A DNA stretch of 64,000 bases from an uncultured Candidatus Sumerlaeota bacterium. Lineage in GTDB: Bacteria; Sumerlaeota; Sumerlaeia; SLMS01. The position numbers were made by a program, and so were the translations under genes. Positions 5,088-55,587 of the stretch are shown piece after piece (the first letter of the stretch is position 1; each line of letters opens with the position of its first letter). The notes beneath the pieces are model-generated. The model searched no databases. It was given only the letters and a program-made list of their open reading frames with translations, and was not told the origin of the DNA. Location: positions 22,815 to 86,814 of the forward strand of contig CAYTGM010000013.1 in assembly GCA_964437365.1 (NCBI GenBank), read 5' to 3'.

Positions 5088-5126
5088 TTTCTGTTCCTTT
5101 ATACACTATTCTATAGATCGAGGTCT

Positions 5127-10498: not shown

Positions 10499-10537
10499 AT
10501 TTACCTCAATACAGTAATTATTTATAGAGTTGCTTAA

Positions 10538-11560: not shown

Positions 11561-11925
11561 ACAGGTGTATCCGATAGAGAAAGTTCGAGGGGATTTATAA
11601 TCCCTCGAGAAGGTTGGTACTTAATCAATTAAGCTTTGCGCTAATGCAATCCTTTTTTGCAGTCAAAATAGCCATGGTCAGGCCTCCCAGGTCATATCCT
11701 TCCATCAGGAAGACTGAATTTATTCATCTTATGGGACGAATTCAATACATGATGAATCACTGCTGCGACGATTTCGAAACTCATATCAATGCTCCATACA
11801 ACTTAACAGTGGTTAAAATGTACGTTAACCTCTTCAGAAAGGATGACTCCAGGTACGATTGATTGGATCCGCAGGCTGTTCGGTGATTAAAGGCCTCAAC
11901 CTTAACTCGTTGAATCCTCGTTCAA

Positions 11926-25263: not shown

Positions 25264-27114
25264 ATGTCTGCGTTGGATATTAATGGAATTCTTAAAGAGG
25301 CAGCGGAAAAAGGTGCGTCGGATATCTACCTTGCAGCCGATGCTGCTCCGTGCATGGCGAAGGATGGTAGCTACTATGGGCTATCCTCCGGTGGCAATCG
25401 TCGCCTGAGCGAAGAGGATACTGTAGAACTTGCTAAGCAAATCACCTCGAATCGGCAGTGGAAAGAGTTTGAAGAGCGACTCGAGCTCAACATGGCATAT
25501 AGCAATGACAATGTTGGCAGATTTCGTGTAAATATATTCTGGCAGCGAGGCACTGTAGCGCTCGTTTGTCGAAGGGTAACTTTGGACATTCCTACTCTGA
25601 GAGACCTTGGCCTGCCACCTAAGTTACGAGAGATTGCTCTGATGGATCGTGGCATTGTCTTGATCACCGGTGCAACCGGACAGGGAAAATCTTCGACTCA
25701 AGCCAGCATGATAGACTATCGGAACCACATCACCTCGGGACACATTGTGACGATTGAAGACCCTGTGGAATTCATTTATCGCCACCGCCGATCTATTGTA
25801 ACCCAAAGAGAAGTGGGTATAGACACACTGAGTTTCCACGAAGCACTTCGAAATACTATGAGACAAGCACCTCAAGTTATTTGTATCGGTGAGCTTCGTG
25901 ACGATGAAACGGTAAAATTCGCTCTCCATGCGGCAGAGACAGGACACCTTGTGTTTGCAACCCTGCACTCGACGAATTCCAGGCAGGCTATCGAAAGAAT
26001 TCTAAACTTCTACCCCACTTCTTCCCATGAACAGATCCTGAAACAGCTCTCTATTAACCTGAATGCAATCATCTGCCAAAGGCTTGTTCCCTCCACAAAA
26101 GGTGGACGGGCGCTTGCCATCGAAATTCTTCTGAATACTCCTCGTATGCAAGATCTTATTGGAAAGGGGCAGCTTGGAACGATTCCGCAGGCTTTGGCGG
26201 CAGAGAATCAGGATGGTATCGTCAACTTTGATAGATCTCTATACAAGCTTGTCAAACGTGGCATTATCACTGAAGAGGATGCGATACAAGCATCAGAATC
26301 GCAGAATGACCTGCAGATGAAATTTCGGGGTATTGGAATCCAGTCCGGTTCCTCTTGGGAAGACACGAGTGATCCCTGGAAGTCTATAGAGGGACCCTAT
26401 GAACCTCCCGAGAATCAGGCGGCGCTTCGTCGATTTGATCGTGCCCAGCAGCAATACCGAAATGAAACACAATACAGAGATCCTGAGCCAACATCTGCGA
26501 GAAAACAACAGATCAGTCCCGGAATGAACCCTCAGGTGCAGGAACCCCAGAAAGTTCCTGCCGCCCACGAGCCCCAACGACCCTCTGAGCCTTCTCCACC
26601 TGCAGCACATCATAGGGAGGTCCCGAAGTCCGGAAATATCGTTGTCACCCCGCCCCCTCCTCAAGTTTCAAGACCCGCTCCAGAGGAAGCAGCGTCTGAA
26701 AATCAGGTTTCAGTACAGAAAAAAGTAAAGCCGGCGACAAGTTCTCGCATTCAAAACGAAACTCGCGAAAGGCTCCCCGGTGACAGGCGAGGTCTGGCGC
26801 CTCTATCAGGAGGTGAGGCCAAACCGCTTACACCACCAAGTCATCAGAAACCCCAGGTACCAGGGAACCCGGCTGCGCGCCAGCCCACCGGTTTTTCTCA
26901 GCCACGGCCAGGATCAGCGCCTGCCCCTTTCAAGGGTCGTTCTCGATCGCCAGAGTCGCAACCGGCTCCATTCAATAAAGCCCAGGATCAGTCGTCCAGT
27001 TCAGGAAACCCTCTAGATGATTTGTCTGATTTCGACTATGAGGAAGATGTTAGACCCCCTAAGGCAAGTGATCTGAAAAAACATATACAACCTCCTCCGG
27101 ATGCAGATCATTAA
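25264..27114 (+). CDS. pilU: PilT/PilU-family type IV pilus ATPase with Pro-rich C-terminal extension
   Basis: ASDIYL, RFRVNIF, GATGQGKSST Walker A, TIEDPVE, QREVG, GELRD, ETGHLVFATLH. PilU versus PilT is tentative. Confidence 0.8.
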   Translation: MSALDINGILKEAAEKGASDIYLAADAAPCMAKDGSYYGLSSGGNRRLSEEDTVELAKQITSNRQWKEFEERLELNMAYSNDNVGRFRVNIFWQRGTVALVCRRVTLDIPTLRDLGLPPKLREIALMDRGIVLITGATGQGKSSTQASMIDYRNHITSGHIVTIEDPVEFIYRHRRSIVTQREVGIDTLSFHEALRNTMRQAPQVICIGELRDDETVKFALHAAETGHLVFATLHSTNSRQAIERILNFYPTSSHEQILKQLSINLNAIICQRLVPSTKGGRALAIEILLNTPRMQDLIGKGQLGTIPQALAAENQDGIVNFDRSLYKLVKRGIITEEDAIQASESQNDLQMKFRGIGIQSGSSWEDTSDPWKSIEGPYEPPENQAALRRFDRAQQQYRNETQYRDPEPTSARKQQISPGMNPQVQEPQKVPAAHEPQRPSEPSPPAAHHREVPKSGNIVVTPPPPQVSRPAPEEAASENQVSVQKKVKPATSSRIQNETRERLPGDRRGLAPLSGGEAKPLTPPSHQKPQVPGNPAARQPTGFSQPRPGSAPAPFKGRSRSPESQPAPFNKAQDQSSSSGNPLDDLSDFDYEEDVRPPKASDLKKHIQPPPDADH

Positions 27115-36350: not shown

Positions 36351-36423
36351 TCAACGCTGTATAGAACCAACTCTAAGTAAATGACAATTGACCCCTCGAA
36401 GCACTTGGGTCACCCTCTCACGC

Positions 36424-36604
36424 ATTGCTGGTATGCTTAGTTTCGACGAAGCATCTTGAGGGAATTCAGTGAAAATCTGAAACTGCCCCGCAGCGGTAAA
36501 CCGGAACGAACGTCGGAAGATACCACTGGAGATTGAAGGATTTCCGGGAAGGTTCGACAAGTAGGCTTTTTCTTCGCCGGTAAGTCCGAAGACCTGTCAG
36601 CAAT
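36424..36604 (+). promoter_or_regulatory. Cobalamin (B12) riboswitch
   Basis: AGGGAA, TTCAG-TGAAAAT-CTGAA (P4), ACTGCCCCGCAGCGGTAA, CCACTG, GGGAAGG and B12-box AAGTCCGAAGACCTG; P1 ATTGCTG/CAGCAAT. Confidence 0.93.
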
Positions 36605-36669
36605 ACTGAGCAGAACATTCCTCTGCCAGATAATCTATAGACTGCCTTCGAGGGAAAGGTCCGTCCCAC

Positions 36670-38079
36670 ATGAATGTCCCACGCGATCGAAATTATTCGA
36701 TCTGTAGAAACAAGTCTGTAACCATCAAACATGCGCAAGTCGTCTGCATATCCACATTTTTTACAGCCGTAACATGTCTGAACGTATCAGCACAGGAAAT
36801 AGACTTTTCTCCCCCTGAAGAGATACTCCCAGGATCCTCTGAAAACTATTTCATGCCGAGGAACCCAAGCAAGAGCCTCGTCGCCGACTCCAACGGACAG
36901 GCTCACTTCACCTACTGGGGTGGCATGGATGGTTTCACCGTCAATGATCAGACCTTTGTTCAATACCTGAAATTCACAAGTACCAGTGGCTGGGAGGCTC
37001 CGATAACTGTCAATGAAACAGCACTGGTGACGACTTCCTCCGGGACGGTGAGTTTCGAAGGGGCTCGCCATCCATCACTGGCCCTTGACGAAGCAGAATC
37101 CCCCTGGGTTGTCTGGCATGATAGACGGCACTGCAACATGGAAGCGCCCGGAAATGGTGTAGACAATTATGAAATCTATGTGAAGCCAATGGATGGAAGC
37201 GGAGGTTTCAGCGGCTCAGACATACGCATCACAGAGACTGCCACAGGAAACCTGTTTGATAATGGATATCAGGCAAAAGCAGCCATCGAACCAAATGGAC
37301 GTATATCTATCCTCTGGTATGATTTTCACTTCGAAGCTGAGATTTCAGACCTTTTTTTCCTGCGCTCCTCACTCTCAAAAGTCTTCCCTGACCCAACCGA
37401 CATGTCTTCCTATAGAATCACAAATTACAATGATCGAGGCGGCATGTCGGCGCCAGCATACTCCAACATCGATTTGACTTCACCTGAGGCAGACACTTAC
37501 GTAGCAACCTGGACCGAAGGGTTTCTTCCACCCTCCCCACTCTACGTTAGTGTTTTCTCAGAGACAACTTCCACCCTCAGCCCGACAGTAGTTGACGCTC
37601 AGACCGAATGTGGAGGTGAACCTGCGCGAACGACTGTTGGACCAGACGGAAGCACATGGATTGTCTACACACGCAGAGTTGGCGCCGAGCGAGACGTTTA
37701 TGCTGCAAGAGTCCGTCCCGGAAACACTTCCGCCGACTCTCCAATACAGCTGGCAGCAACCCCATCAGTTCGCGAGTCCTCCCCGGACATCGAAGTTGAC
37801 TCAGACAACAACCTTCACGTTGTCTGGAATGACCAGCGCTCGGGACAGCATATATACTATGGATACTTCTCTGGCGAGACAGGAGAGTTGATCGCTGAAA
37901 AACGGATCACTGAAACGTCTTCCACATGGACAAAGCCAGCCATCACAGTTCTTCAAGATGGGGAGATTCTAATTGTCTTCGAAGAAATCATCATTGCGAC
38001 CAGTACACATAAATTATGGTATGCTGAGGGAAGTCTTCAGCTACCAATGAGCGCTGAAGCGTGGAGGATGTATCCATGA
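36670..38079 (+). CDS. Secreted beta-propeller/BNR-like repeat protein
   Basis: Signal-like N-terminus (..NVSA-QE); repeats of P-x-hydrophobic-x-hydrophobic-D-x-x-G/N-x-x-hydrophobic-V-W (e.g. SPDIEVDSDNNLHVVWND); ends SAEAWRMYP. Confidence 0.7.
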   Translation: MNVPRDRNYSICRNKSVTIKHAQVVCISTFFTAVTCLNVSAQEIDFSPPEEILPGSSENYFMPRNPSKSLVADSNGQAHFTYWGGMDGFTVNDQTFVQYLKFTSTSGWEAPITVNETALVTTSSGTVSFEGARHPSLALDEAESPWVVWHDRRHCNMEAPGNGVDNYEIYVKPMDGSGGFSGSDIRITETATGNLFDNGYQAKAAIEPNGRISILWYDFHFEAEISDLFFLRSSLSKVFPDPTDMSSYRITNYNDRGGMSAPAYSNIDLTSPEADTYVATWTEGFLPPSPLYVSVFSETTSTLSPTVVDAQTECGGEPARTTVGPDGSTWIVYTRRVGAERDVYAARVRPGNTSADSPIQLAATPSVRESSPDIEVDSDNNLHVVWNDQRSGQHIYYGYFSGETGELIAEKRITETSSTWTKPAITVLQDGEILIVFEEIIIATSTHKLWYAEGSLQLPMSAEAWRMYP

Positions 38080-38747
38080 AGAAGCATGCCTTTACATTGA
38101 TTGAGCTCCTCATTGTAGTAACCATTATCGCAATCCTCGCTGCCATTGCTCTGGTTAACCTTCGTCTGGCGATGGAAAGATCCATGAAATCAGCAGACAT
38201 GGCGAACATGAAGGTGATTGGCTCGGGGTTGCAGATGTACTTTGTAGACTACGGGACATTGCCTCCTGCTGATAGAGAAGCGGCTCCTTATCCTTCCTTT
38301 GGTAGCTCCTTCACGACCATTGGAAATGGGCCAGCTGCCGGAGGCTCGTGGGACGGCGTCCCCTGGATACTTGTAGACAAGGGATATATCTCCGACTGGC
38401 GAACTCTTTTCAATCCCAAGTATCTCAAACGGTATGGTTCAGGCACCACGATAAAGGGAGACTATCCACGGTTTCACAACTTTCGCTACGCATATAATGC
38501 TTCAGCCATATCTTCTGGCGGCGTAACTGGTGGTACTGGCAACATCAACTCCGGTGAAGTCTGGATTCTCCGAAATCTCTGGATCGACCCGGAAGCTGGA
38601 TGGTATGGCTCCTCTTACCCGAATTACCCGGCTGACTACGACTTTCCATGGAGTGACGCAGAATACACAGATCGACTGGAGCATGTCCTCTTCGCTGATA
38701 TGGCCGTCAAAACAGTTGTAGGCGGCACTGATGAGATTGTCAGGTGA
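38076..38747 (+). CDS. Prepilin-type N-terminal cleavage/methylation domain protein
   Basis: MKKHA|FTLIELLIVVTIIAILAAIA (Ala-1, Phe1, Glu5); ATGA overlap with the upstream gene; C-terminal HVLFADMAV. Confidence 0.9.
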   Translation: MKKHAFTLIELLIVVTIIAILAAIALVNLRLAMERSMKSADMANMKVIGSGLQMYFVDYGTLPPADREAAPYPSFGSSFTTIGNGPAAGGSWDGVPWILVDKGYISDWRTLFNPKYLKRYGSGTTIKGDYPRFHNFRYAYNASAISSGGVTGGTGNINSGEVWILRNLWIDPEAGWYGSSYPNYPADYDFPWSDAEYTDRLEHVLFADMAVKTVVGGTDEIVR

Positions 38748-38764
38748 AGGACAACGACTAAATC

Positions 38765-39670
38765 ATGATTTGTCGATTGTACTTTCTCGTTTTAACCTTC
38801 CTCCTGACAACTCAGACTCTACTTGGATCTGAATCAGGACAGTCCGATAGCCACGATACTAAAAGCACATCTACCCTAAGAATCATCTCTCTAACTCCAT
38901 CTATCACGGAAACGCTCTTCACCATAGGAGCGGGAGAACAGGTTATCGGCCGTACGAAGTATTGTCTATACCCTCCAGAGGCAAAGACCCTTCAGACACT
39001 TGGTGGTTATTTTGACCTTGAACTGGAAAAAGTGCTGAAAATGAAGCCCGACCTGGTGGTCATGATGAAAGGTGCTCACTCCGTCGAAGCGCAGCTTAAA
39101 CAATTGAACATCAACGTCCTTTCCTATCAAATGGAAAGTATCAGTGATATACGAGAAGTTATCAAGGAGCTCTCATCTGAACTACAGACTGGGGAAAACG
39201 GAGAAAGAGCACTTCGAAACTTCGACCAGGAGATCAACACAGTAAAAGAGAACTCGAAGTCAGTTTCGAAGAAAGGTCTTTCTGCGCTCCTTGTGATGGA
39301 CCGACAAATCGGTAACTTTGATGAAATGTTCAGCACAGGCCCAGGAACATTCCTCGAAGAGCTGATCCTTCTCATGGGGCTTTCAAATTCAACAAACGAC
39401 GCTGATGCCCCCTACCCTACTGTATCGCTCGAATCCATTATCAAGAAGAAGCCTGAAGTAATCATAGAAGTGCGTACTGGTACACTCAATAATATGAATA
39501 TATCAGAAGCTTCCGTTACGAGAGAATGGACTGACTTGTACGAGACCTTTGGATTAACACCTCCCAAAGTTATCCTTATCGAGGATCCTCACCTTACGAT
39601 TCCGGGACCGGGCATCACGGAGAGCCTCAAGTCGCTTCAACACAAGCTGAACGAAAAGCTTTCTCAATGA
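38765..39670 (+). CDS. BtuF-like ABC transporter substrate-binding protein
   Basis: RIISLTPSITETLFTIGAG, LELEKVLKMKPDLVV, SLESIIKKKPEVII, PGP; downstream of the B12 riboswitch. Confidence 0.88.
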   Translation: MICRLYFLVLTFLLTTQTLLGSESGQSDSHDTKSTSTLRIISLTPSITETLFTIGAGEQVIGRTKYCLYPPEAKTLQTLGGYFDLELEKVLKMKPDLVVMMKGAHSVEAQLKQLNINVLSYQMESISDIREVIKELSSELQTGENGERALRNFDQEINTVKENSKSVSKKGLSALLVMDRQIGNFDEMFSTGPGTFLEELILLMGLSNSTNDADAPYPTVSLESIIKKKPEVIIEVRTGTLNNMNISEASVTREWTDLYETFGLTPPKVILIEDPHLTIPGPGITESLKSLQHKLNEKLSQ

Positions 39671-40470
39671 AGGAGAGCGATTTCATCTATACTTTATCAG
39701 AAGTAAACTTCTGCTATCCTGGAACAGCAAGTAAAGCTCTTAGTGATATTGATCTAAACCTTCCGGCCGGTAAGTTTTTTGGAATCATCGGTCCCAACGG
39801 CTCAGGAAAATCAACGCTGCTGAAAATCTTGTCAGGTTGGAACCAACCGGACACAGGAAACGTTCTATATAGCCATAAACCCATTCAATCCTTTCAAAGA
39901 CGCCAACTTGCTTCTAGAATCTCTTTCCTGTCTCAATCAGAAACGCACCCTTTTGCCTATCGTGTAAAAGAGATCGTAGCGATGGGCCTTCTTCCCCAGC
40001 GATTAAACACCGGTAAGAAAGAAGAAAGAGCTCTTATCGATGAAGAGGCAATGATCTCTAAAATCCTGCAATGGGTCGGCGTGGAACAACATCTGGATCG
40101 ATATACAAGCAGTCTATCGGGCGGCGAAAGGCAGAGGGTTCTCCTAGCAAGAACTCTTGCTCAGAACCCGGAAACCCTGCTGCTGGATGAACCAACAACA
40201 TACCTTGATCCAGAGGGTCAGAAACGGTGCCTGTCATTGATAAGATCACTTGTGGATGAGGAACGATTGACGGCCATTGGAGTGTTTCATGATATTAATC
40301 TCGCATCTGCCTTCTGTGACCATCTTATTATGCTCAAGGAAGGCAAAGTCTTTCAATCTGGTCCTCTCAGTGAAGTACTAACAAAAGAGAACTTGAAAGG
40401 TCTCTTCCAGGTGGATTTTCATCTTAGCGAAGATTCCAAAGGTAGACCGTGGGCGAGGATGGAATTGTGA
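39667..40470 (+). CDS. BtuD/FecE-like ABC transporter ATP-binding protein
   Basis: GPNGSGKST, LSGGERQRV, LLLDEPT, HDINLA. Confidence 0.92.
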   Translation: MKESDFIYTLSEVNFCYPGTASKALSDIDLNLPAGKFFGIIGPNGSGKSTLLKILSGWNQPDTGNVLYSHKPIQSFQRRQLASRISFLSQSETHPFAYRVKEIVAMGLLPQRLNTGKKEERALIDEEAMISKILQWVGVEQHLDRYTSSLSGGERQRVLLARTLAQNPETLLLDEPTTYLDPEGQKRCLSLIRSLVDEERLTAIGVFHDINLASAFCDHLIMLKEGKVFQSGPLSEVLTKENLKGLFQVDFHLSEDSKGRPWARMEL

Positions 40471-41528
40471 CAATCCACACACGTATTTTTAAGGAAATCT
40501 CTTCCTCAACGGAGATGCCTGACCAGTCACCTGCGAAAAGGCAGGACGGCAATCGATTGGTTGTCTGTTTAGCCTCATTTGCCTTTCTACTTCTCGCTCT
40601 TGCGCTTTGTCCCTTTGTAGGATATGCAGATGTTGGTATCGACATTCTCTGGAATTCTGAGAATTACGCGGAAACAGACCGTCAGATCTTTTTTCTACTA
40701 CGCCTTCCAAGAGTTCTCTTTGCTGCTCTCGCTGGGGCCGCTCTCTCTATCGCCGGGGTTGTCTATCAGGCAACACTGAGAAACGATCTGGCAGAGCCAT
40801 TCTCCCTGGGAGTCGCAGGAGGTGCAGCCCTGGGCGCTGTTCTTGGTATGCAAGTCAGCTTTCTATCTTCCTATGCTGCTTCGGTCCCGCTTCTTGCCTT
40901 CACAGGATCAATAGCTGCTATATTTATCGTATACACAATTTCCATGAGGAGAGGTGGAACGCTTTCACCCGAAACACTCATTCTGGCCGGAGTTGCCCTG
41001 AACCTGTTCTTTGGAGCAATCATTCTTGTTGTACAGTATCTGACCGATCCGTATCAAACAGTCCAGATCATTCGCTGGATGATGGGTGGAATTCCAGTTG
41101 TCGGCAAAGCACAACTCTTTGTCGGTATCGCTATCCTTCTTGTTTCATGGCTCACGCTCATGACCCTTTCGAAACAAATCGATATACTGACCCTCGGCGA
41201 GTTTCCCGCTTTTCACTTGGGAGTGTCCGTAGGAAAACTACGCCTCATAACACTTACAATTGGGTCAGTTCTGACGGCAGCTGTTGTATCTGTGGCAGGA
41301 CCAATCGGATTTGTCGGGCTGATTATTCCTCATATCATGAGACGCATCGGCGGAGCGACTCACGGTTACCTGCTGATAGCTGCACCACTGGCCGGAGGGG
41401 CATTTCTTGTCTGTTGTGACACTCTTGCCAGGACACTCCTCGACGGAACCGAGTTACCAGTCGGCATTCTGACGGCAGCTCTCGGATCTCCATTCTTCAT
41501 TTGGATTCTCTGGAGGAAGAAAAAGTAA
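40449..41528 (+). CDS. BtuC/FecD-like ABC transporter permease (start may be ATG 40514)
   Basis: LRLPRV, QATLRNDLAEPFSLGVAGGA, GPIGFVGLIIPH, ELPVGILT. Confidence 0.92.
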   Translation: MGEDGIVTIHTRIFKEISSSTEMPDQSPAKRQDGNRLVVCLASFAFLLLALALCPFVGYADVGIDILWNSENYAETDRQIFFLLRLPRVLFAALAGAALSIAGVVYQATLRNDLAEPFSLGVAGGAALGAVLGMQVSFLSSYAASVPLLAFTGSIAAIFIVYTISMRRGGTLSPETLILAGVALNLFFGAIILVVQYLTDPYQTVQIIRWMMGGIPVVGKAQLFVGIAILLVSWLTLMTLSKQIDILTLGEFPAFHLGVSVGKLRLITLTIGSVLTAAVVSVAGPIGFVGLIIPHIMRRIGGATHGYLLIAAPLAGGAFLVCCDTLARTLLDGTELPVGILTAALGSPFFIWILWRKKK

Positions 41529-41529
41529 G

Positions 41530-42612
41530 TTATCTGACCTTGAAGCGATGAATACCATAGGGAGCTTCTGGATTAGCTCCTTCGTGTATCCGAGCAGTCG
41601 TGAAGTAAATCGAGTCGTTTGGCCCGAGACTGAATGAATCCGGCCAGCTGATAGCCTCGCCCGAAACAACAGTTTCTACTTCTCCTGAGCTGGTAGTGCG
41701 TCGGATCGCGTTATGTTCAAGAGCTGAGATATATACCTTACCGTCAGGACCAAAAATAAGGCCATCGGAAGCCCCTGTTTCTCCAACTACTTGAACACGA
41801 CTTGCGAGTTCTGAAGACGTAAGTGACCCATTTCTCAAGTCAGCGCCGCTAATGCTATACATGGTCCGGCCTGTCAGCGCCTGATAAAAGACCGTATCTG
41901 AAGCAGCATCATAAGCAATCCCGTCTGCATGGACCTCGCGTTTTTCTCCATTCTGAAGCCATTGGTCCCCCTCGATAGTAAGGATGACATCTTCCGCTTC
42001 TGTCGAGGGATGATCGTCCAGGAGACGTCGAATGACGCCTGTATTCATATCAGCAACGATTAGTGCGCCATCGCCGGAATCTGTGATATAGGCGACTTCT
42101 CTCGCTGTATCGATACGCACATCGTTCAAATAACTTGTTTCTTTTGTAATATTTGAGGGGAAGAGAATGGATTGTTCTATTTCACCAGACTCAAGATTGA
42201 TCTGAAGAAGTTTTGCTCCACCCGAGACGACGCCTTGAAATTTCGGGTTCGCGGGATCAAGTATCCAAAGACGATTTTTGTCGTCGATAAAGACAGACTG
42301 AACACAGACGAAATGGCTGTAGGGATCTTTTCCTTCATCCCAGCTGTTCATAGCTGCATTCGGATAAGGGACTGGCTTTCCATCAACAAGTTCTGCGACG
42401 GAGATGGGTACATCATCAGACCAGCGAGGGTAATTAACGAAGATGCGATTGTCCTGTGAAACCGCAATACCCGTCCATTGACGATCTGAGGTCGCCACTG
42501 TTTCCAGTTCAGGAGCCGTGTAGGTATTGATTGTTTCCTGCACAGTGGCGCAAGAGGTGAGGAGAATAGTGGTCGAGACTAAAAACGTCGACGTTATCTT
42601 AGCTGGCTTCAT
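41530..42612 (-). CDS. Major royal jelly protein/SMP-30-like beta-propeller lipoprotein
   Basis: LLTSC lipobox from ATG 42612; WTGIAVS..RIFVNYPRW, RLWILD, YLNDVRID, AYITDSG, ADGIA, WPDSF. Confidence 0.85.
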   Translation of the reverse strand: MKPAKITSTFLVSTTILLTSCATVQETINTYTAPELETVATSDRQWTGIAVSQDNRIFVNYPRWSDDVPISVAELVDGKPVPYPNAAMNSWDEGKDPYSHFVCVQSVFIDDKNRLWILDPANPKFQGVVSGGAKLLQINLESGEIEQSILFPSNITKETSYLNDVRIDTAREVAYITDSGDGALIVADMNTGVIRRLLDDHPSTEAEDVILTIEGDQWLQNGEKREVHADGIAYDAASDTVFYQALTGRTMYSISGADLRNGSLTSSELASRVQVVGETGASDGLIFGPDGKVYISALEHNAIRRTTSSGEVETVVSGEAISWPDSFSLGPNDSIYFTTARIHEGANPEAPYGIHRFKVR

Positions 42613-42694
42613 ATTTTTGTCCGTCCTGAGAAATGTGGTTGGATTCCTGTCATTATTTACGGGCGAGCAAAATCCGGGCAAGACCCGCGGAGGG

Positions 42695-42980
42695 AACGGT
42701 TAAAACCGTGGGGGGATGGGGGAATATCAGGTGCGCAGGTTAAAACCCGCGCCTCGGCTAAAGCCTCGCTACGCTCGAAGTGAATAGCCCCTTGAAACTG
42801 TGCTGCGCGGAACAACAGCAGTTGCGAATCCTTAGAAATGAATCTGCGTCTCGGAATCACCTTCCATCATAAGGCCCCTCTCAACCCCTCCGAGCGAAGC
42901 GAGACTTTAGCCGAGGCTCGTACTTTAGTACGAGCACACCTCCCCGTCCCTCAACACCCCATCAACCGTTTCAACGGTTT
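42695..42980. repeat. Composite REP/REPIN-like element, copy A
   Basis: Outer hairpins AACGGT-TAAA-ACCGT and AACCGTT-TCA-ACGGTT enclose inverted REP units at 42731-42777 and 42891-42935. Confidence 0.85.
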
Positions 42981-43491
42981 CTAGATCCTCGAAGTACGCA
43001 CCTTCGAAGTCGTATGGAGCCTCATCCTCTTCAATGAAACCATCGCCCTCCGCTATATCTTTCAATCCAGCCCTTTCCATCATGATGACAAACTCTTCTC
43101 GAAAGGACAGATTTCGATGATGGACTTTCTGATTATCGATATACGAACACACCTGAGGTAACTTATCGTAAGAGACAGAAAAAACCGCATACGACCTCTG
43201 CCAGCGAAATTTTTCATGCGATATTTGATGCTTATTGATCCAATAAGAACTTGACCCTTTGAAGTACTTCACAAGTTCCTCAAGTGTATAGTTTGTTGGC
43301 ATATTAATGAGAATATGAACGTGATCCGGATTTACATAGAGCGTCAGAAGTTCAACCCCTTTCTCCTTCAGATATACCTGAAGAAAACCTGCTACTCGGC
43401 GCCCTCCTTCATCGTTTAGAGATGCACGGCGGTCTTTTGTCGACCAGACAAAGTGCTGGTAGGATTGAACATGGGTTCGTTTAGACATCAT
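42925..43491 (-). mobile_element. tnpA: IS200/IS605-type Y1 (HUH) transposase, RAYT-like
   Basis: HFVWSTK, DHVHIL (HUH), FKGSSS, WQRSYAVFSVS and YIDNQ..HH (catalytic Tyr); flanked by REP-like hairpins; no tnpB. Confidence 0.9.
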
Positions 43492-43606
43492 CGCTGCCTT
43501 GAAGGAGATAGTTCAAATGTGTTTTGAGCGGAATAATGACGAAAGAAGATGGGCAGTCAATACAGATCCTATCCCGAATACATAGCGATACGTCGAAAAC
43601 GGCGAA

Positions 43607-43693
43607 AACGGTTAAAACCGTTATAATGAGGGTGGGACGACATCAGGTGCGCAGGTTAAAACCTGCGCCTCGGCTAAAGTCTCGCTACGCTCG
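43607..43693. repeat. Half REP element, copy B
   Basis: AACGGTTAAAACCGTT followed by GTGCGCAGGTTAAAACCTGCGCCTCGGCTAAAGTCTCGCTACGCTCG, upstream of tnpA. Confidence 0.85.
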
Positions 43694-43822
43694 GAGAGAA
43701 CTTCCCTATGAAATTTTGTAATATCAGGAACCATCATTGGGAAAATCTGAGGCGGAATGCACGCTTCGAATTCTTCTGCTGATAACGAACCTCTTTCTTC
43801 CCCCTTTGATTTACCATTGGAA

Positions 43823-44102
43823 AACGGTTAAAACCGTTCGGGGATGTGGGCCACATTAGACGTGCGCAGGTTAAAACCCGCGCCTCGACTAAAGCCTCGC
43901 TGCGCTCGGAGCGAACTGCGCCATTCAATTGTACTCCGAATAGCAAGAGTAGCTGTGAGTCCTGAAAGTGAATTCGCGTCTCGGAATCACCTTCCATCAA
44001 AAGGCCTATCAAAACCCTTCCGAGCGAAGCGAGACTTTAGCCGAGGCTCGCACTTCAGTGCGAGCATGCATCGAAACTCCCCCCCAACCGTTTCAACGGT
44101 TT
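43823..44102. repeat. Composite REP/REPIN-like element, copy C
   Basis: Same architecture as copy A; shares the identical 24-bp inner core GCGTCTCGGAATCACCTTCCATCA. Confidence 0.85.
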
Positions 44103-44106
44103 CTCC

Positions 44107-45171: not shown

Positions 45172-45834
45172 TTAGTTATTAGCCATACCAGCTTCGCTTG
45201 GAACTTCACCACCGGAGCGGATAATGTCACCACGGCTGATTGTTCCGTTTGTTGGGTCGTAAACACCCTCAACAATGTGTGAATCGGGCTGGTTACCAAC
45301 TGCCACGTTATAGACGCGCCAGTTAATCGCGTCCTGAAGCTTGTCTGGACCCAGACTCCAGGAAATCCAACCTGCGTAATCTTGTGGTGCTCCTGAACCG
45401 TAGTCCTGAGTGAAAGTCTGAAATGTCTGATAGCTGATATAGTCTTGATCATAAACGGTACCTGCGCCGGGAATACCTGGCGCGTTTGTAATCTGACCCT
45501 TTTCGATGAAGATATCGAGCATCATATCCACTGAAGTCAAATACGCGATGGGCGTCGTCAAACGATAGAGGCATTTGTTGGCTTCAAGATAGATACCACC
45601 AGACTGTCCCTGCCAGCTATAATGAGGTGGATACCGGTTATTATCAACAAAATAGGTTTCAATGCCGGTGGCCATAGACCGCATGTCAGCTTTCATCCGT
45701 GAGACTTTACTTCTTGTTTGAGCCTCAAGGAAGTTTGGAACTGCGATCGCAGCGAGAATGGCGATGATGGCTACAACGATGAGCAGTTCGATGAGCGTAA
45801 ACGCCTTGTTTGGTTTGGGGGTAAATGTACGCAC
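45172..45834 (-). CDS. Prepilin-type N-terminal cleavage/methylation domain protein
   Basis: NKA|FTLIELLIVVAIIAILAAIAVPNFLEAQTRSKVSRMKADMRS; C-terminal WSLGPD and YDPTNGTISRGDI. Confidence 0.92.
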   Translation of the reverse strand: MRTFTPKPNKAFTLIELLIVVAIIAILAAIAVPNFLEAQTRSKVSRMKADMRSMATGIETYFVDNNRYPPHYSWQGQSGGIYLEANKCLYRLTTPIAYLTSVDMMLDIFIEKGQITNAPGIPGAGTVYDQDYISYQTFQTFTQDYGSGAPQDYAGWISWSLGPDKLQDAINWRVYNVAVGNQPDSHIVEGVYDPTNGTISRGDIIRSGGEVPSEAGMANN

Positions 45835-49815: not shown

Positions 49816-51696
49816 ATGCGCCTGCCACCCTTTGACTGCCTTACTTCGCTGCTTGTGATTCTGACATCATGGACCTTTGTATCAGCAAGTGAGACCGGCG
49901 GGCGCCTGGAAACGGGTAGCCAAAGCACCTTTATACACGAAATTGGAATTTATGATTCAGAAGGTGCGATTATAGACCCCGCCTCTGATTCCCCTTCACC
50001 ATTTTCCACCGAACAAACATGTGGGAAGTGCCACGACTATAAAGCTATCTCATCAGGATGGCATTTTAACAGTCGAATGGAGGAGGTTGATCATGGTCGC
50101 CCCGGTGAACCGTGGGTTATCACTGATGAAAAGTCGGCGACACAAATTCCCGTCTCTTACAGGAACTGGCCCGGTCTCTGGCAGCCAAAAGATATCGGGC
50201 TCTCCGATTGGGAATTCCTCCAGACATTTGGTCGTCATATGCCTGGTGGCACATTCAAAGACTCAGGTACACACGACCCTGAGGAATTCAAGGAGCTCTG
50301 GGAAGGAGCTGGTACCTACCAGATTGACTGCATGTCTTGCCATTCACTGGATCGGACACAAAATCAGACTCTCAGACATGATCAAATTGAAAAACACAAT
50401 CTCCAGTATATATCCATCACTACGATGGGAATAGGATCTGTTGAAGGAGCTATCAAAGACGCCGACTCAGGAGGCGGGTTAGACGAGTCTGATCCTTTCG
50501 CAGCCTTTGATCCTGCGTTTGAAGAAACGGCAGCAGGACCTGCCGCGTTATCGATTACTTATGACATGAGCAAGTTTGATGAAAATGACCGAACTTTCTT
50601 TGATGTCTCGAGGAAAGGCAAAATTGATAACTGTTTTTTCTGCCACAGCAACAGAACAATGTCCAATGGCAGCGCCACTCCTGAGTGGCACAATGACCAG
50701 GACGTTCATATCTCAGCTGGTCTTTCCTGTACCGATTGCCACCGCAACGGGATCGATCATGATATTGCTCGGGGTTATCTATACAACAGTGAAGAGGTCT
50801 CCATTTCAGAACTTTCACTCTCCTGTCAGGGTTGCCATTATGGAGTAGAGGAAGAAGCTGTCCCTACCTCGAACGGAATGGCGGGCAGGCTAGGTTCTCC
50901 CCTGCCAGCACACGCCGGGATCCCACCTATACACTTTGATGAAATGTCGTGTACTTCATGCCACTCTGGCCCATATCCGAAGAATGATCTGAGCGTCGTC
51001 CAAACATCTTTGGGACATGCCCTGGGTCTTGCGAAGTTCGCTAATGAAAGGTCACAGCTTCCTTTTGTTCAATATCCAGTCTATGCGCGTGGCCACGACG
51101 GAAAGATCGCTCCCCATAAGATTCTCTGGCCAGCATTCTGGGCCAGAATAAATGACAACGGCGAATCACTCCCCATACTTCCCTCTGAGTTAGCTCCTCA
51201 TCTGCCAGAAGAAGAACTCGACTTTCAGGATTTTATTAAAGCTGGGCTGAAAAACCTTTCAGAGAAAGATAAGGAGACTGGCTTTGCCTATATCGCAGGT
51301 GGAATGAAGTATACACTCGAAGGTGAAAGTCTGATTTCATCAGAAGATCCTACAGCGGAACCTTATCTCTGGGCTTTTGCTCATGATGTGCGACCAGCCA
51401 GTCAATCAATCGGCGCCAAGAGCTGCCAGGAGTGCCATTCACCGGACTCTCCCTTCCTGTTTGCCAGCTTCAGTTCTCTTTCGCCACGAAGCGATGCTCT
51501 GACAATAACGCGCAAGATGACGGACCTGATGAAGATAGACGAATCGGAACAACTTCGATTCGCTGGTACCTTTGCCTACAGACCAGTCTTTAAGGTCTTC
51601 CTAATCGCGATGATCACTTTGCTCTTTATTCTTTTCATTATGATTGCGGGACTGCTGGGGCACCGTCTATTTGAAGGAGGTCGTCGTTCGGTATGA
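49816..51696 (+). CDS. Membrane-anchored multiheme cytochrome c (7 CxxCH)
   Basis: Signal peptide; CGKCH, CMSCH, CFFCH, CTDCH, CQGCH, CTSCH, CQECH; C-terminal TM helix. Confidence 0.9.
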   Translation: MRLPPFDCLTSLLVILTSWTFVSASETGGRLETGSQSTFIHEIGIYDSEGAIIDPASDSPSPFSTEQTCGKCHDYKAISSGWHFNSRMEEVDHGRPGEPWVITDEKSATQIPVSYRNWPGLWQPKDIGLSDWEFLQTFGRHMPGGTFKDSGTHDPEEFKELWEGAGTYQIDCMSCHSLDRTQNQTLRHDQIEKHNLQYISITTMGIGSVEGAIKDADSGGGLDESDPFAAFDPAFEETAAGPAALSITYDMSKFDENDRTFFDVSRKGKIDNCFFCHSNRTMSNGSATPEWHNDQDVHISAGLSCTDCHRNGIDHDIARGYLYNSEEVSISELSLSCQGCHYGVEEEAVPTSNGMAGRLGSPLPAHAGIPPIHFDEMSCTSCHSGPYPKNDLSVVQTSLGHALGLAKFANERSQLPFVQYPVYARGHDGKIAPHKILWPAFWARINDNGESLPILPSELAPHLPEEELDFQDFIKAGLKNLSEKDKETGFAYIAGGMKYTLEGESLISSEDPTAEPYLWAFAHDVRPASQSIGAKSCQECHSPDSPFLFASFSSLSPRSDALTITRKMTDLMKIDESEQLRFAGTFAYRPVFKVFLIAMITLLFILFIMIAGLLGHRLFEGGRRSV

Positions 51697-52277
51697 TTGG
51701 ACTTCTTCTTTCCCTTCTTGCAGGTATACTGGCACTTGTTCTCTCGGTGCTCTTGTTTAAAAAAACGAACAGGGATTTGTTGAACACGCTCGGAATTTGC
51801 CTCGTTGGCTTCTGCGGCGCTTTGATGATGATCTCCGGATGGACAGGGTGGTCTGCAGAAGCGCTATATGGATCTAAGATGGGACATTGGGACATTATGC
51901 TGCATATCCCTTCAGGTTCTGCGCTCCTGGCTTCTGCATTTATTCTGACTCTTACTCTCCTTGTCTATAACCGGCGGTGCCAGAGTCAGGTAGAAAAGAA
52001 CGGGCAACCGAGAGCTCTGAAGTCAACGGCTCTGATATCTCTAAGTCTGCTCCTACTCTTTCTTTCACTGGCCACTCTCAGCATTCTGCTTGCCATGTTT
52101 CCAATATTCGGAACTCAAGGTCAGAAGCTCCTGTTTGAATTGCATGCTTTATCTGCAATTGCATCCATCATCATGTTTTCCCTGCTGTGCATCGTATTGT
52201 TCAAGCAGGGGTTTAAGACGACCATGTCAAACACTCTCACTCAAAATAGTAATCTCACTGAAGGAGAAGTCTCGTGA
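51693..52277 (+). CDS. Polytopic membrane protein, possible cytochrome b-like partner
   Basis: About 5 hydrophobic segments; His in DIMLH and FELH; ATGA-coupled to the cytochrome gene. Confidence 0.7.
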   Translation: MIGLLLSLLAGILALVLSVLLFKKTNRDLLNTLGICLVGFCGALMMISGWTGWSAEALYGSKMGHWDIMLHIPSGSALLASAFILTLTLLVYNRRCQSQVEKNGQPRALKSTALISLSLLLLFLSLATLSILLAMFPIFGTQGQKLLFELHALSAIASIIMFSLLCIVLFKQGFKTTMSNTLTQNSNLTEGEVS

Positions 52278-52993
52278 AGAAGACTCTTATTACAACTGCA
52301 TTCATTTTCTCTGCACTATCCATTTCTTCTGTATATGCGCAGGAAGAAACGGCTTCGGAAGCAAAAAACTACGAAAAGCCTGCTGCACCTGAAGGCCAGA
52401 AGGAACTTGAGCTTGAGCTGCCACAACCTCTCTTTGTAGGCACACCGCAGAACATCATGTCCGACAACCTTGAAGAAGCGAATATCCAAAGAGACCCGGT
52501 ATATATTCCAGAGGAAGCAGAACTACTCTCAGTAGACACATGGGTAACATCCAGTGATTCTGCACCGATCATCGGCGAACTGGAAATGGTAACGGATGGA
52601 GACAAAGACGGCAATGAAGGAAGCTACGTTGAGCTTGGACCAGGGAAACAGTGGATCCAGATTGAGCTTGATGAACCAGCTGAAATCCATGCGATCGCTA
52701 TCTGGCATTTCCATAGTCAGGCAAGAGCTTACCAGGACGTTGTGGTGCAGATTGCCTCAGACCCCGATATCCTGGAAAATGTATCCGTCCCATTCAATAA
52801 TGATCATGATAACAGCCTTGGCCTCGGAATCGGCAAAGACAAGGAATGGATTGAAACTTATGAAGGACGCATGATCGACGTTGACGGAGTAAAGGGTCAG
52901 TATATTAGGCTCTACAGCGATGGAAGCACATCCAACCCAATGAACCACTATATTGAAGTTGAGATTTACGGTGTTCCAGCAACGGATGAATGA
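52274..52993 (+). CDS. Secreted discoidin/F5-8 type C-like domain protein
   Basis: Signal peptide; VTDGDK, QWIQIEL, GQYIRLY, IEVEIYG. Confidence 0.72.
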   Translation: MKKTLITTAFIFSALSISSVYAQEETASEAKNYEKPAAPEGQKELELELPQPLFVGTPQNIMSDNLEEANIQRDPVYIPEEAELLSVDTWVTSSDSAPIIGELEMVTDGDKDGNEGSYVELGPGKQWIQIELDEPAEIHAIAIWHFHSQARAYQDVVVQIASDPDILENVSVPFNNDHDNSLGLGIGKDKEWIETYEGRMIDVDGVKGQYIRLYSDGSTSNPMNHYIEVEIYGVPATDE

Positions 52994-54615
52994 CAGATAG
53001 ATTAGACAGCAAAAGAGATTTTGAAAGGTGGGCCTCTGTGGGGGCCCTTCTTTTCATTTTAATCCCTCTCGCTGTCTGGTTACGCCTTCCAGGCCTTTCG
53101 CAGCGCCCCATGCATACAGATGAGGCTGTTCAGGGGTGGAAGACAGTCGCACTCATCGAAGAGAACTCATACAAGTATGACCCAACGGAGCATCATGGCC
53201 CCCTTCTTTACTATTATACAGCATCTCTCTTAAAACTATCTGGAGCGAGTGATTCAACACAGCCACAAAAAGAACACCTCAGGCTGGCAATTCTCATTCC
53301 CTCAATACTTCTTGTTTTTCTTCCTTATCTTATTCCACGTGTAACGGGATATGCAGCCCTCATTTCATCAACAATGTTGGCCGTATCACCCATGATTGTA
53401 TTTTACTCGACTTACTATATCCAAGAAATTCTCTTTGTTCTCTTCAGCTGGCTTTTCGTAATCAGTCTATACCTGTTACTCCAGCCTTCAAGTTCAAGAA
53501 AGCAAATCTATGGAGGCCTTGTTTTCAGCTCTTTTATTCTGGGAGGAGTCATTTGTTTAAAGGAGACCTTTGTGTTACTCCTTCTATCAACAGTGTCTGT
53601 TGTTGCTTTACAACTCCTGCTTTTCAGCTCCCGTAGAAAACTTTATCAGAAGTTTATGCGACGCATAGGAATCGGTCTGCCAATCGTCTTCATGATCATT
53701 CCGTCCCTGCTCATGGTCTTTTTATTCTACAGTAGCTTTGGTAGCAATTTAGCCGGAATTTGGGATTTTATCACAAGCTGGACAACCTACCTTGAACGAG
53801 CGGGCGGGGCTGGAAGCGTAGCTGATCACACACAACCCTGGTGGTTCTATGTGCAAAGAACTTTGTATTTCAGTTCAGGCAATGGAATCAGCTGGTCTGA
53901 GTGGCCGGTCTATGTAATTCTGGCCAGTGGAAGTGTGTGGCTTATTCTCTCAAAACGAAAAGATCATAGAACGCTCTTTAACTCCCTGGGAATTCTAGGC
54001 ATATCCAGTTTACTGTTTCTTCTATACAGCTTGATCCCCTACAAAACTCCCTGGCTGACCTTAAATTTTCATGTGGGCTTTATTCTCTCGATTGCTGGAC
54101 TACTTTCTGTGAGCAGGATCTCGATTACTGCAAAGGGCGTCGTTACTCTCGCAGCTTGCGGAGCTCTGATCATCTTTCTTGTTCCATTAGCTCAACGCAC
54201 AAACGCGACATACTTCTCTACGGACCAGCGAAATCCCTGGGTCTATGCACACAGTGTTCCAGCAGTTGAGAAACTTTCGGATCGTATTCATTCCCTCTCA
54301 GCTTTTCAGAAACAGGTTTCCAACAACAATCAGGAACTGACTGTTATTGTCATTGCAGCTGATTACTGGCCACTCCCCTGGTACTTGCGAGACATTGAAC
54401 AAACGGGCTACTGGAATACGATGCTGGAAGATCTTCCTGTGTCGGAAATCATCGTCGCCTCTGCAGAGTATGAAGGCGACATCGAAGAACAACAGGGAAG
54501 AGAATACATCTCCTCTTTCTACGGTATTTTGCCTGAGAGACCAGTCCTCCTCATGGTGGAGAAGAAGCTTTGGCAATCCTGGCTGGACTCGCAATCCAGA
54601 GAAATGAAGAAGTGA
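52990..54615 (+). CDS. PMT-like (GT-C) membrane glycosyltransferase, TIGR03663/Agl23-like
   Basis: MHTDEAVQG, YKYDPTEHHGPLLYY, YYIQE, PYKTPW, DYWPLPWYLR; many TM helices. Confidence 0.75.
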   Translation: MTDRLDSKRDFERWASVGALLFILIPLAVWLRLPGLSQRPMHTDEAVQGWKTVALIEENSYKYDPTEHHGPLLYYYTASLLKLSGASDSTQPQKEHLRLAILIPSILLVFLPYLIPRVTGYAALISSTMLAVSPMIVFYSTYYIQEILFVLFSWLFVISLYLLLQPSSSRKQIYGGLVFSSFILGGVICLKETFVLLLLSTVSVVALQLLLFSSRRKLYQKFMRRIGIGLPIVFMIIPSLLMVFLFYSSFGSNLAGIWDFITSWTTYLERAGGAGSVADHTQPWWFYVQRTLYFSSGNGISWSEWPVYVILASGSVWLILSKRKDHRTLFNSLGILGISSLLFLLYSLIPYKTPWLTLNFHVGFILSIAGLLSVSRISITAKGVVTLAACGALIIFLVPLAQRTNATYFSTDQRNPWVYAHSVPAVEKLSDRIHSLSAFQKQVSNNNQELTVIVIAADYWPLPWYLRDIEQTGYWNTMLEDLPVSEIIVASAEYEGDIEEQQGREYISSFYGILPERPVLLMVEKKLWQSWLDSQSREMKK

Positions 54616-54618
54616 TCG

Positions 54619-55587
54619 ATGAGTGTGAATGCTCAAAATAGAGGCGAGGGATGGTATAGATATAGCCATCAGGCCATGGCCACAGAATTCACAATTCTTA
54701 TATCGCATGCCTCAAAGGACCACGCCAGACAAGCTGCAAGAGCAGCGTTTGAACTTCTGGATAAACTTGAATCCGAGATGAGTCGTTATCGATATGCAAG
54801 TGATATACGGCGACTCGAAAAAGCTCCAGAAGGTACATGGGTCACGGTAGGGCTTGATACTTGCCTGTGCGTGATGAAGGGTGTACTGGCCGGTGAAATC
54901 ACTTCTGACATTTTCAATATATGCGTTGGACCGCTCGTAGATTTCTGGAAAGAGACGGATCAACCTCTCAACGATCAACAGGCGATTCAGCTCCAGCAAG
55001 TTCGATTGCTCTGTCAGACCACGAACCTTTTAATAGATCCTGACCGGTCTCGACTATTGAAAAAAGTGGAGGGAGTAAAGATTGACCTGGGAGGTATTGG
55101 AAAAGGCCATGCGCTTGATCGCCTGGTAACATTCCTGAAAGAGGATTGGGGAATCGCGGATGGGATTCTTGATAGTGGCGACAGCTCTGTGCTTGTTTGG
55201 AACGACAACACAACAGTTCAAGCAGATCCCTGGTCTTTCTCCATGATTAACCCTCATGACGAGAGCAAGTTACTTGGCCGAATTCAACTCAGGCAAGGAT
55301 CCGTTAGCGGGTCTGGTACTTATAGAAAAGGGCAGCATATCATTGATCCAGAGACCGGCAAACCAGTCAGTCCAAAGTTCGCCTGCTGGGCATACGCACC
55401 TGAAGCTTCGTGGAGCGATGTTCTCTCGACGGCCGCGATGCTCTGTGATTCAACAGTTCTCGCGTCTGCTGTGCACGAATTGCCTGATACCGGAGTGTTG
55501 AGAATTCCTCTCGAGGAGATCGGAGAAGTGATGGACACAGACAAGATCGAAATCATCGGAAATTTCCCTGAGTTCAAGACCACCTGA
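54619..55587 (+). CDS. apbE: FAD:protein FMN transferase
   Basis: AMATEF, IDLGGIGKG, HIIDPETG, DVLSTA. Confidence 0.88.
   Translation: MSVNAQNRGEGWYRYSHQAMATEFTILISHASKDHARQAARAAFELLDKLESEMSRYRYASDIRRLEKAPEGTWVTVGLDTCLCVMKGVLAGEITSDIFNICVGPLVDFWKETDQPLNDQQAIQLQQVRLLCQTTNLLIDPDRSRLLKKVEGVKIDLGGIGKGHALDRLVTFLKEDWGIADGILDSGDSSVLVWNDNTTVQADPWSFSMINPHDESKLLGRIQLRQGSVSGSGTYRKGQHIIDPETGKPVSPKFACWAYAPEASWSDVLSTAAMLCDSTVLASAVHELPDTGVLRIPLEEIGEVMDTDKIEIIGNFPEFKTT

Follow-up and report, generated by a model that had tools for sequence, protein, structure and literature searches.

B12 is a keystone micronutrient that most microbes must scavenge, and the known outer steps of its uptake are BtuB and, in Bacteroidota, the additional proteins BtuG, BtuH and BtuJ. 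Genes behind cobalamin riboswitches are switched off in the presence of B12, and most of them serve B12 uptake, B12 synthesis or a B12-independent bypass. We examined an operon of this kind in a 64-kb stretch of DNA (the window) from an uncultured Candidatus Sumerlaeota bacterium. Behind a cobalamin riboswitch it encodes a secreted beta-propeller (the gene product is termed PROP), a pilin-like protein (PIL) and an ATP-binding cassette (ABC) importer resembling BtuFCD. A survey of related loci indicated that PIL is the recurrent partner of the riboswitch and that PROP is one of several unrelated secreted proteins ending in the same short C-terminal tail.

In the Btu loci of Bacteroides, the surface accessory binders BtuG, BtuH and BtuJ feed BtuB and BtuFCD (PMC13616437, PMC10404256, PMC6143338). 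By analogy of its logic, this relay is the closest known system to the operon described here. Both combine riboswitch control and a conserved ABC importer with lineage-specific extracytoplasmic accessories, several unrelated folds occurring per locus, and in both one accessory is a seven-bladed beta-propeller, BtuG in Bacteroides and PROP in the window. The Sumerlaeota locus differs in lacking BtuB or another TonB-dependent partner, PROP is neither a homologue of BtuG nor a lipoprotein, as judged below, and the shared C-terminal tail and the pilin-like companion have no counterpart in Bacteroides. With the BtuB-BtuFCD system of the Escherichia coli type, the locus shares the cobalamin riboswitch, a BtuF-like binder, a BtuC-like permease and a BtuD-like ATPase, but the outer-membrane step is missing from the operon, PROP and PIL are extra components and the Btu equivalog cut-offs are not reached.

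Pilin-like proteins of the DUF1559 type (PF07596, 'H-X9-DG') are expanded in Planctomycetes and their relatives. PIL resembles these proteins, as well as type IV pilins and pseudopilins (GspG, PilA), in its methylation motif, invariant glutamate and helix of ~50 residues; it differs in a head domain with no detectable neighbour, in the absence of a conserved disulfide from the family, in being single-copy and riboswitch controlled and in its far higher conservation. PilY1 and its minor pilins place a propeller at the tip of the type IV pilus, where it is thought to ride on the pilins. The genetic pairing of a beta-propeller with a pilin-like protein may be a similar arrangement, but PROP has no PilY1/PilC match, there is one pilin-like gene rather than four or five and no adjacent pilus genes were noted. 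In the archaeal bindosome, sugar-binding proteins that feed ABC importers carry a pilin-type (class III) signal. The presence of such a signal on a protein of an ABC importer operon, presumably for substrate capture, would be common to both systems, although the bindosome belongs to another domain of life, there is no homology and a conventional BtuF-type binder is also present here.

No paper in the searched literature linked B12 riboswitches with pilin-like proteins, and none dealt with B12 uptake in Sumerlaeota. A riboswitch-controlled corrinoid uptake locus is in itself known; the class of accessory proteins found here is undescribed in that literature, and the shared tail of the secreted partners is a new, previously unnoticed finding. 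In an uncultured, globally distributed phylum, the B12 riboswitch is coupled to a pilin-like protein whose conservation exceeds that of the importer. If the proposal developed below is true, the module would represent a new class of corrinoid-handling proteins, open a first way to the function of the large, enigmatic pilin-like proteins of the DUF1559 type found in bacteria resembling the Planctomycetes-Verrucomicrobia-Chlamydiae group and supply a simple peptide docking motif that can be searched for in other genomes. If a pilus-based reading were true, small molecules would be taken up via a pilus with a new modular docking code. Although the hosts are uncultured, all of the components have a size and solubility that suit direct studies of binding and structure.

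The operon and the linkage of PIL to the riboswitch

The riboswitch matched the Rfam covariance model RF00174 with 99 bits (gathering score, 31.5; E = 1.6e-23) and was the sole Rfam family found in the 64 kb. All model positions from 1 to 189 were covered, indicating a complete aptamer. It is followed by five tightly packed co-directional genes encoding PROP, PIL, a BtuF-like protein, an ABC ATPase and a BtuC-like permease (Table 1). The junctions measure, in gene order, -4, +17, -4 and about -22 nucleotides (nt), the last becoming +44 nt if the permease starts at the second of its two possible start codons. At the first junction, an ATGA overlap joins the stop codon of PROP (TGA) and the start codon of PIL (ATG), with GGAGG located 9 nt upstream. 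The operon ends at a convergent gene for a propeller of the MRJP/SGL type (positions 41530-42681, minus strand; Pfam). An earlier note on this DNA had described a complete cobalamin riboswitch ahead of five packed genes, BtuF/D/C-like components among them, with ATGA coupling of PIL to PROP, closure by a convergent gene and no TonB-dependent receptor. Each of these points was reproduced, by the full-length Rfam match, the 4-nt overlap, the Pfam and best NCBIfam assignments and a Pfam scan of the operon. An internal promoter, which would have spoken against a single unit, did not stand out clearly from shuffled expectation: consensus scans gave 10 promoter-like sites (shuffled, 5.9 ± 2.2), none on the plus strand exceeding 9 of 12 matches, and 6 terminator-like sites (shuffled, 4.8 ± 2.2), with no clear excess of either. 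A consensus scan for terminator-like sites between the aptamer and the PROP start codon detected none, and the predicted fold of positions 36596-36690 was not better than that of shuffles (z = 0.62). No expression platform was recognized in 36616-36669, and neither transcriptional nor translational control was indicated.

The importer genes form a complete type II ABC set (Peripla_BP_2, FecCD and ABC ATPase) within one operon. The BtuF-like gene matched PF01497 with an E value of 3.9e-20, and its top NCBIfam match was BtuF PRK03379, at 95.8 bits compared to an equivalog cut-off of 234. The ATPase matched ABC_tran (PF00005; E = 4.3e-33) and the heme and corrinoid ABC ATPase models of NCBIfam at ~200 to 223 bits, while the BtuD equivalog model gave 124 bits (cut-off, 281). 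The permease matched FecCD (PF01032) with an E value of 1.8e-83; BtuC PRK09535 was its top NCBIfam match, at 227.8 bits (cut-off, 461), and a further BtuC model gave 222 bits (cut-off, 334). As none of the three genes reached the NCBIfam equivalog cut-offs for BtuF, BtuC or BtuD, the corrinoid specificity of the importer rests on the riboswitch. No TonB-dependent receptor, TonB or ExbBD was detected by Pfam in the 47 window open reading frames (ORFs) of at least 124 amino acids (aa), operon included, and no TonB-dependent receptor domain was present in 10 scanned neighbours.

One genome per GTDB species was scanned with two PIL peptide motifs, which yielded 40 loci. Since retrieval relied on PIL motifs alone, the association with the riboswitch is independent of locus selection. 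All 40 loci belonged to Candidatus Sumerlaeota. In 30 of them, an Rfam scan detected RF00174 on the strand of PIL and no more than 4 kb upstream of it; three of the other ten were truncated at the start of the contig. Among divergent PIL relatives from metagenomes (38 to 44% identity), a riboswitch was present in all three loci with upstream DNA. The linkage spans loci of 42 to 68% G+C content. Two architectures were observed, one with the riboswitch 67 to 179 nt before PIL and no gene between (9 loci) and one with one or two secreted-protein genes in this interval (20 loci). Homologues of PROP with 25 to 36% identity adjoined PIL in 21 of the 40 loci, and a BtuF homologue lay directly downstream of PIL in 10, followed in 6 of these by BtuD and/or BtuC; one locus (L037) consisted of riboswitch, PIL, BtuF and BtuC without a cargo gene. 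Identity to the window protein was 52 to 70% for PIL in 39 of the 40 loci, with a lower value of 43% in L074, compared to 46 to 49% for BtuC, 36 to 40% for BtuD, 24 to 35% for BtuF and 25 to 36% for PROP. By sequence identity, PIL is therefore the best conserved protein of the operon, above the ABC permease.

These results shifted the emphasis of the earlier note, which had centred on the propeller: PIL is the invariant core, and PROP belongs to a set of secreted partners that are interchangeable. The synteny that it had suggested checking, a propeller and a pilin with btuF(CD) behind a B12 riboswitch, did recur in many Sumerlaeota loci. Its statement that B12-regulated prepilin-like genes had been noted in Planctomycetes was not traceable in the searched literature, and the recurrence seen here is in Sumerlaeota.

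The prepilin-peptidase-type N terminus predicted for PIL was clearly recognized by N_methyl (PF07963; E = 6.7e-8) and TIGR02532 (E = 1e-7), with a class III signal that reads ...KKHA ahead of the mature FTLIELL. The glutamate at mature position 5 (E10 in the precursor) was invariant in 35 sequences, and position -1, canonically Gly, was Ala in the window protein and either Ala or Gly across the family. An alignment of these 35 sequences contained 46 invariant columns, rich in W, Y, H, N and G, and the conserved motifs GNGPAAGGSWDGVPW, PRYHNFRYAYNS, SSGGHxGG, YPADY and YPWGEG. An AlphaFold2 (AF2) model built from the same number of sequences had a predicted local distance difference test score (pLDDT) of 74.5, with a high-confidence helix at residues 8 to 59 and poor ordering of the conserved Gly-rich loops of the head. 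In both structure and profile, the likeness to pilins was limited to the N-terminal helix, and hidden Markov model matches ended at about residue 95. PF07596 (DUF1559) was matched weakly by 23 of the 35 family members (best E = 1.7e-5) and not at an E value of ≤1 by the window PIL; the C-terminal strand, (H/N)VL(F/Y)AD..VR, is as in DUF1559 proteins. PIL may be a divergent DUF1559-type pilin-like protein with a novel globular domain. Its database relatives number in the thousands, the closest hundred-odd being 53 to 70% identical and, where named, all from Candidatus Sumerlaeota/BRC1. Only ~25 clusters aligned over most of its length among 1.84 billion representatives at 50% identity, and on this sequence evidence the family is compact and strongly constrained.

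Several retrieved loci had further features of their own. The divergent PIL relatives behind cobalamin riboswitches in L076 (3874-6942, minus strand), L079 (6745-11244) and L080 (1878-7514) lie beside tetratricopeptide repeat (TPR) proteins of 1022 to 1878 aa; TPR domains frequently bind C-terminal peptides. PIL is followed in L073 by hemB (ALAD; 5084-6073) and in L064 by a class-I glutamine amidotransferase and an AAA/Mg-chelatase-like protein (7044-9917), which are tetrapyrrole/cobamide related. In L054, a 1044-aa protein without a Pfam match and with the C terminus ...KWKIF directly follows PIL-BtuF (8582-11716) and could be an unrecognised outer-membrane protein. Matches to the Rfam small RNA Acido-Lenti-1 were found at L060 600-646 and L064 12242-12288 (both minus strand; 44 and 42 bits), one of them on the strand opposite to PIL and a short distance upstream of its coding region.

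Secreted partners and their shared C-terminal tail

The same C-terminal tail, W-x-x-[Y/W/L]-[E/D/R/Q/P], was found at the end of at least six secreted families encoded between the riboswitch and PIL. BLASTP comparisons indicated that these families are mutually unrelated. They comprise PROP, a PQQ_2/BamB-like propeller family (c3), the orphan families c6, c9 and c24, family c158/u291 and family c221, whose gene lies downstream of PIL in L062. The ending is W-x-x-Y-[E/D/R/Q/P] in nearly all of them. The window PROP ends in WRMYP, and examples from elsewhere include WLQYE, WELYQ, WRWYE, WHFYE, WEEYE and WQLY, with the variant W-x-x-[L/W]-E in the PQQ family. The strict motif was present in 22 of the 35 genes located between a riboswitch and PIL. 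In ~0.5 Mb of Sumerlaeota flanks, an ending of the form W..[YF].? occurred in 33 of 484 crude gene calls, ~29 of the 33 being inside a PIL operon, and in the six frames of the window PROP was the only stop-to-stop segment of at least 100 aa with the tail ending. A general C-terminal signal was disfavoured by this restriction of the tail to PROP within the window and by its rarity outside the operon in the flanks.

PROP itself gave only a weak BNR_4 match in Pfam (E = 6e-4) and a weak PDIAV_lipo match in NCBIfam. The AF2 model, obtained from a 14-sequence alignment (pLDDT, 82; predicted template modelling score, 0.83), contained 27 to 28 strands arranged in seven four-stranded blades, a signal-like N-terminal helix at residues 21 to 35 and, beyond the last blade, the tail as an appendage of low pLDDT. 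The N terminus, ...FFTAVTCLNVSAQE, had no canonical [LVI][ASTVI][GAS]C lipobox on inspection and the homologues lack a conserved Cys, so that PROP appears to carry a Sec-type rather than a lipoprotein signal. The 50 listed Foldseek matches were GH145/BNR_4-like hydrolases, PL42/PL25 lyases, Photorhabdus lectins and sialidases, with template modelling (TM) scores of ~0.5 to 0.57 and identities of 10 to 13%. PROP is distantly BNR_4/sialidase-like and belongs to the variable cargo proteins that the module encodes. No PilY1/PilC match was obtained at an E value of ≤0.01 (Pfam).

BtuG is a B12 binder that folds into a beta-propeller of seven blades (PMC13616437), and the earlier note had suggested comparing PROP with it. 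The class of fold was supported by the AF2 model, but no relationship in sequence could be detected. A profile of 19 PROP sequences had no match to PDB sequences at an E value of ≤10, in a library in which BtuG would be expected because a BtuG structure is in the PDB (8BMZ; PMC13616437), and BtuG was absent among the 50 listed Foldseek matches. Homology of PROP to BtuG was rejected on these grounds. PROP had also appeared to be rare, as a word-indexed search returned two full-length relatives (~31% identity). This was a sensitivity artefact, since BLAST/tblastn searches of the loci showed PROP to be common beside PIL. Both of the relatives adjoin a PIL homologue and a BtuF-like gene, and one of their contigs begins inside a cobalamin riboswitch.

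Among the other cargo families, c6, c9 and c24 had no meaningful match to PDB sequences; c9 had a marginal legume-lectin match (E = 0.028). Families c24 and c12 (L070 4021-5514, L049 540-1982 and L002 459-1787) are made up of a ~130-aa repeat with GDVDGW at its end, present one to three times. A possible resemblance of this repeat to DUF4430 or the transcobalamin beta-domain, a B12-binding module, was not supported by Pfam or by a profile search of the PDB.

A proposed corrinoid-scavenging model and its alternatives

The repeated pairing with btuF(CD) suggests a role in uptake. We propose, at what we judge to be an even chance, a module for corrinoid scavenging that is specific to Sumerlaeota and repressed by B12, with PIL as a hub on which tagged capture proteins dock and which feeds BtuFCD. 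The proposal starts from what was observed: a riboswitch with its set of genes, a linkage across the phylum that ties PIL to this riboswitch, tagged proteins and btuFCD, the PROP fold, the PIL N terminus and the shared tail. At low levels of intracellular cobalamin, the riboswitch would permit expression of the operon. Corrinoid would then be captured by one or two proteins that are exported by Sec and vary in fold, the role being played here by a seven-bladed BNR-like propeller and at other loci by a PQQ/BamB-like propeller or by orphan folds. The short flexible tail would dock the capture protein on the globular domain of PIL, which is proposed as the receptor because PIL is the only gene that always accompanies the tail. 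PIL, whose pilin-type helix would keep it in the envelope either as a monomer anchored in the membrane or in a short pseudopilus, would take the corrinoid and pass it to BtuF and thence to the BtuCD-type importer.

A number of observations weigh against this proposal. In the PDB profile search, PROP showed no homology to a known B12 binder, and since glycoside hydrolases, lyases, lectins and sialidases are the structures nearest to its model, a carbohydrate-directed role is possible. For PIL, the globular domain was modelled with only moderate confidence (pLDDT of <50 in loops 143-156 and 175-186) and has no structural neighbour, the best Foldseek match having an E value of 0.077 and a TM score of 0.39. 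At the gathering score, 7 of the 37 loci with upstream sequence show no riboswitch, and the gene calls in the retrieved loci were crude, being based on our own ORF selection, with approximate starts. Binding of corrinoid by PROP or PIL, the envelope location and the hand-over to BtuF are steps that we infer. Docking of the tail on PIL was deduced from co-occurrence only and would be a putative interaction. Furthermore, the W-R codons of the window tail (TGGAGG) coincide with the Shine-Dalgarno sequence GGAGG of PIL, and selection on the nucleotides may account for some of the tail's conservation. The explanation of the tail as a mere side effect of the Shine-Dalgarno sequence was, however, largely rejected: its two middle residues vary freely while the Tyr codon (TAY) is conserved, and it is kept where the stop codon lies 41 to 164 nt from the PIL start and on genes followed by PROP instead of PIL, or by nothing. 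A function of the tail at the peptide level is probably the better explanation.

A different assignment of the binding step would make PIL itself the corrinoid receptor, a binding protein with a class III signal at or above the inner membrane as in the bindosome, with the tagged proteins as dispensable helpers and the tail serving sorting or stability. PIL is the only invariant gene and often stands alone behind the riboswitch (9 loci), with L037 showing it next to BtuF and BtuC without cargo; its conservation and invariant motifs rich in aromatic residues, His, Asn and Gly fit a fixed small-molecule ligand, and its family is weakly related to PF07596, which has the Pfam label SBP_bac_10. This assignment does not account, however, for the tail that six unrelated partner families have in common, a dedicated BtuF is already in the operon and PIL has no similarity to any known B12-binding fold, and we regard it as unlikely. 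BtuB-independent uptake in the wider sense, with PIL in a short fibre or in the machinery of a type IV pilus or type II secretion system (T2SS), carrying interchangeable capture proteins clipped on by a five-residue tail and shuttling B12 across the envelope to BtuFCD, seems to us rather unlikely as well, and passage through a pilus or T2SS channel is speculative. A more specific version of the route that the earlier note had proposed, in which a dedicated pilin or pseudopilin presents the propeller from the tip of a retractile type IV pilus or T2SS-like fibre and draws corrinoid in via a secretin, in place of BtuB, is distinctly doubtful. PIL occupies the position that btuB has in many btuBFCD operons, it has a bona fide class III signal whose glutamate at mature position 5 is invariant, and the pairing of propeller and pilin may recall PilY1 and its minor pilins. 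A PilT-like ATPase is present in the window, and the operon, the 47 scanned window ORFs and the 10 scanned neighbours contain no TonB-dependent receptor domain. A btuB or tonB gene may nevertheless sit elsewhere in the genome, outside the 64-kb window, and by known rules one pilin gene alone cannot build a tip complex. In addition, position -1 of the window PIL is Ala and not the canonical Gly, and no pilus or T2SS assembly gene for an ATPase, platform, secretin or prepilin peptidase was noted beside the module, among which only the ATPase was searched for systematically, with a T2SSE homologue in 1 of 41 loci and on the opposite strand.

The structural neighbours of PROP raise the question of an adhesion module induced by B12 starvation, in which PIL and lectin- or glycosidase-like partners would attach the cell to B12 producers or glycans and uptake would proceed by BtuFCD together with an outer-membrane transporter encoded elsewhere. 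The closest of these neighbours are lectins, sialidases and polysaccharide-active enzymes, family c9 has a marginal legume-lectin match and the set of cargo proteins varies widely, a pattern typical of surface adhesins. We consider such a module improbable, as the coupling to btuF(CD) and the riboswitch control of PIL alone are simpler under a transport role and the propellers were not assigned to any catalytic or lectin family. Neither PROP nor PIL has an assigned function, and both could in principle be unrelated to B12, their position behind the riboswitch being incidental to one genome. The linkage of riboswitch and PIL in 30 of 40 loci across the phylum, at PIL identities of 43 to 70%, and in divergent relatives contradicts such a coincidence, which we take to be very improbable.

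Coordinates and other features of the window

Table 1. Features of the cobalamin riboswitch operon in the 64-kb window
Feature	Coordinates	Strand	Basis
Cobalamin riboswitch aptamer	36412..36615	+	Rfam RF00174
PROP, predicted Sec-secreted seven-bladed beta-propeller, 469 aa	36670..38079	+	Weak BNR_4, AF2 model
PROP C-terminal tail W-R-M-Y-P, proposed docking motif	38062..38076	+	Motif common to cargo proteins
PIL, pilin-like protein, 223 aa	38076..38747	+	N_methyl / TIGR02532
BtuF-like periplasmic substrate-binding protein (cluster A)	38765..39670	+	Peripla_BP_2 PF01497
ABC ATPase (BtuD/HmuV/FecE type)	39667..40470	+	ABC_tran PF00005
BtuC/FecCD-type permease; start uncertain, GTG 40449 or ATG 40515	40449..41528	+	FecCD PF01032

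The PilT ATPase that the earlier note had placed ~10 kb from the operon does exist, as a T2SSE/PilT-like gene at 25264-27114 (plus strand), ~9 kb upstream of the riboswitch and among unrelated genes (a BadF-type ATPase and a glycosyltransferase). Its suggested connection with the module was not supported, as a T2SSE homologue near PIL was found in only 1 of 41 loci, on the opposite strand. The ATPase has a Pro/Gln-rich C-terminal extension of ~330 residues. A second pilin-like gene in the window (45172-45834, minus strand) was grouped with PIL by single-linkage clustering. It belongs to a different family that shares only the N-terminal helix with PIL; it has an N_methyl motif and neither a riboswitch nor a tagged neighbour.

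Just downstream of the operon, the region 42695-44104 contains an IS200-like Y1 transposase (PF01797; ORF 42925-43491, minus strand) that is flanked by direct repeats of ~100 nt and, on both sides, by palindromes of 30 to 40 nt in two to three copies. This region looks like a REP/RAYT-type arrangement. Further downstream, a cluster on the plus strand (49816-55587) encodes a multihaem cytochrome with weak MtrC/MtrF-like domain matches, an F5/8-type C domain protein and an ApbE flavin transferase, and it may represent an extracellular electron-transfer module.

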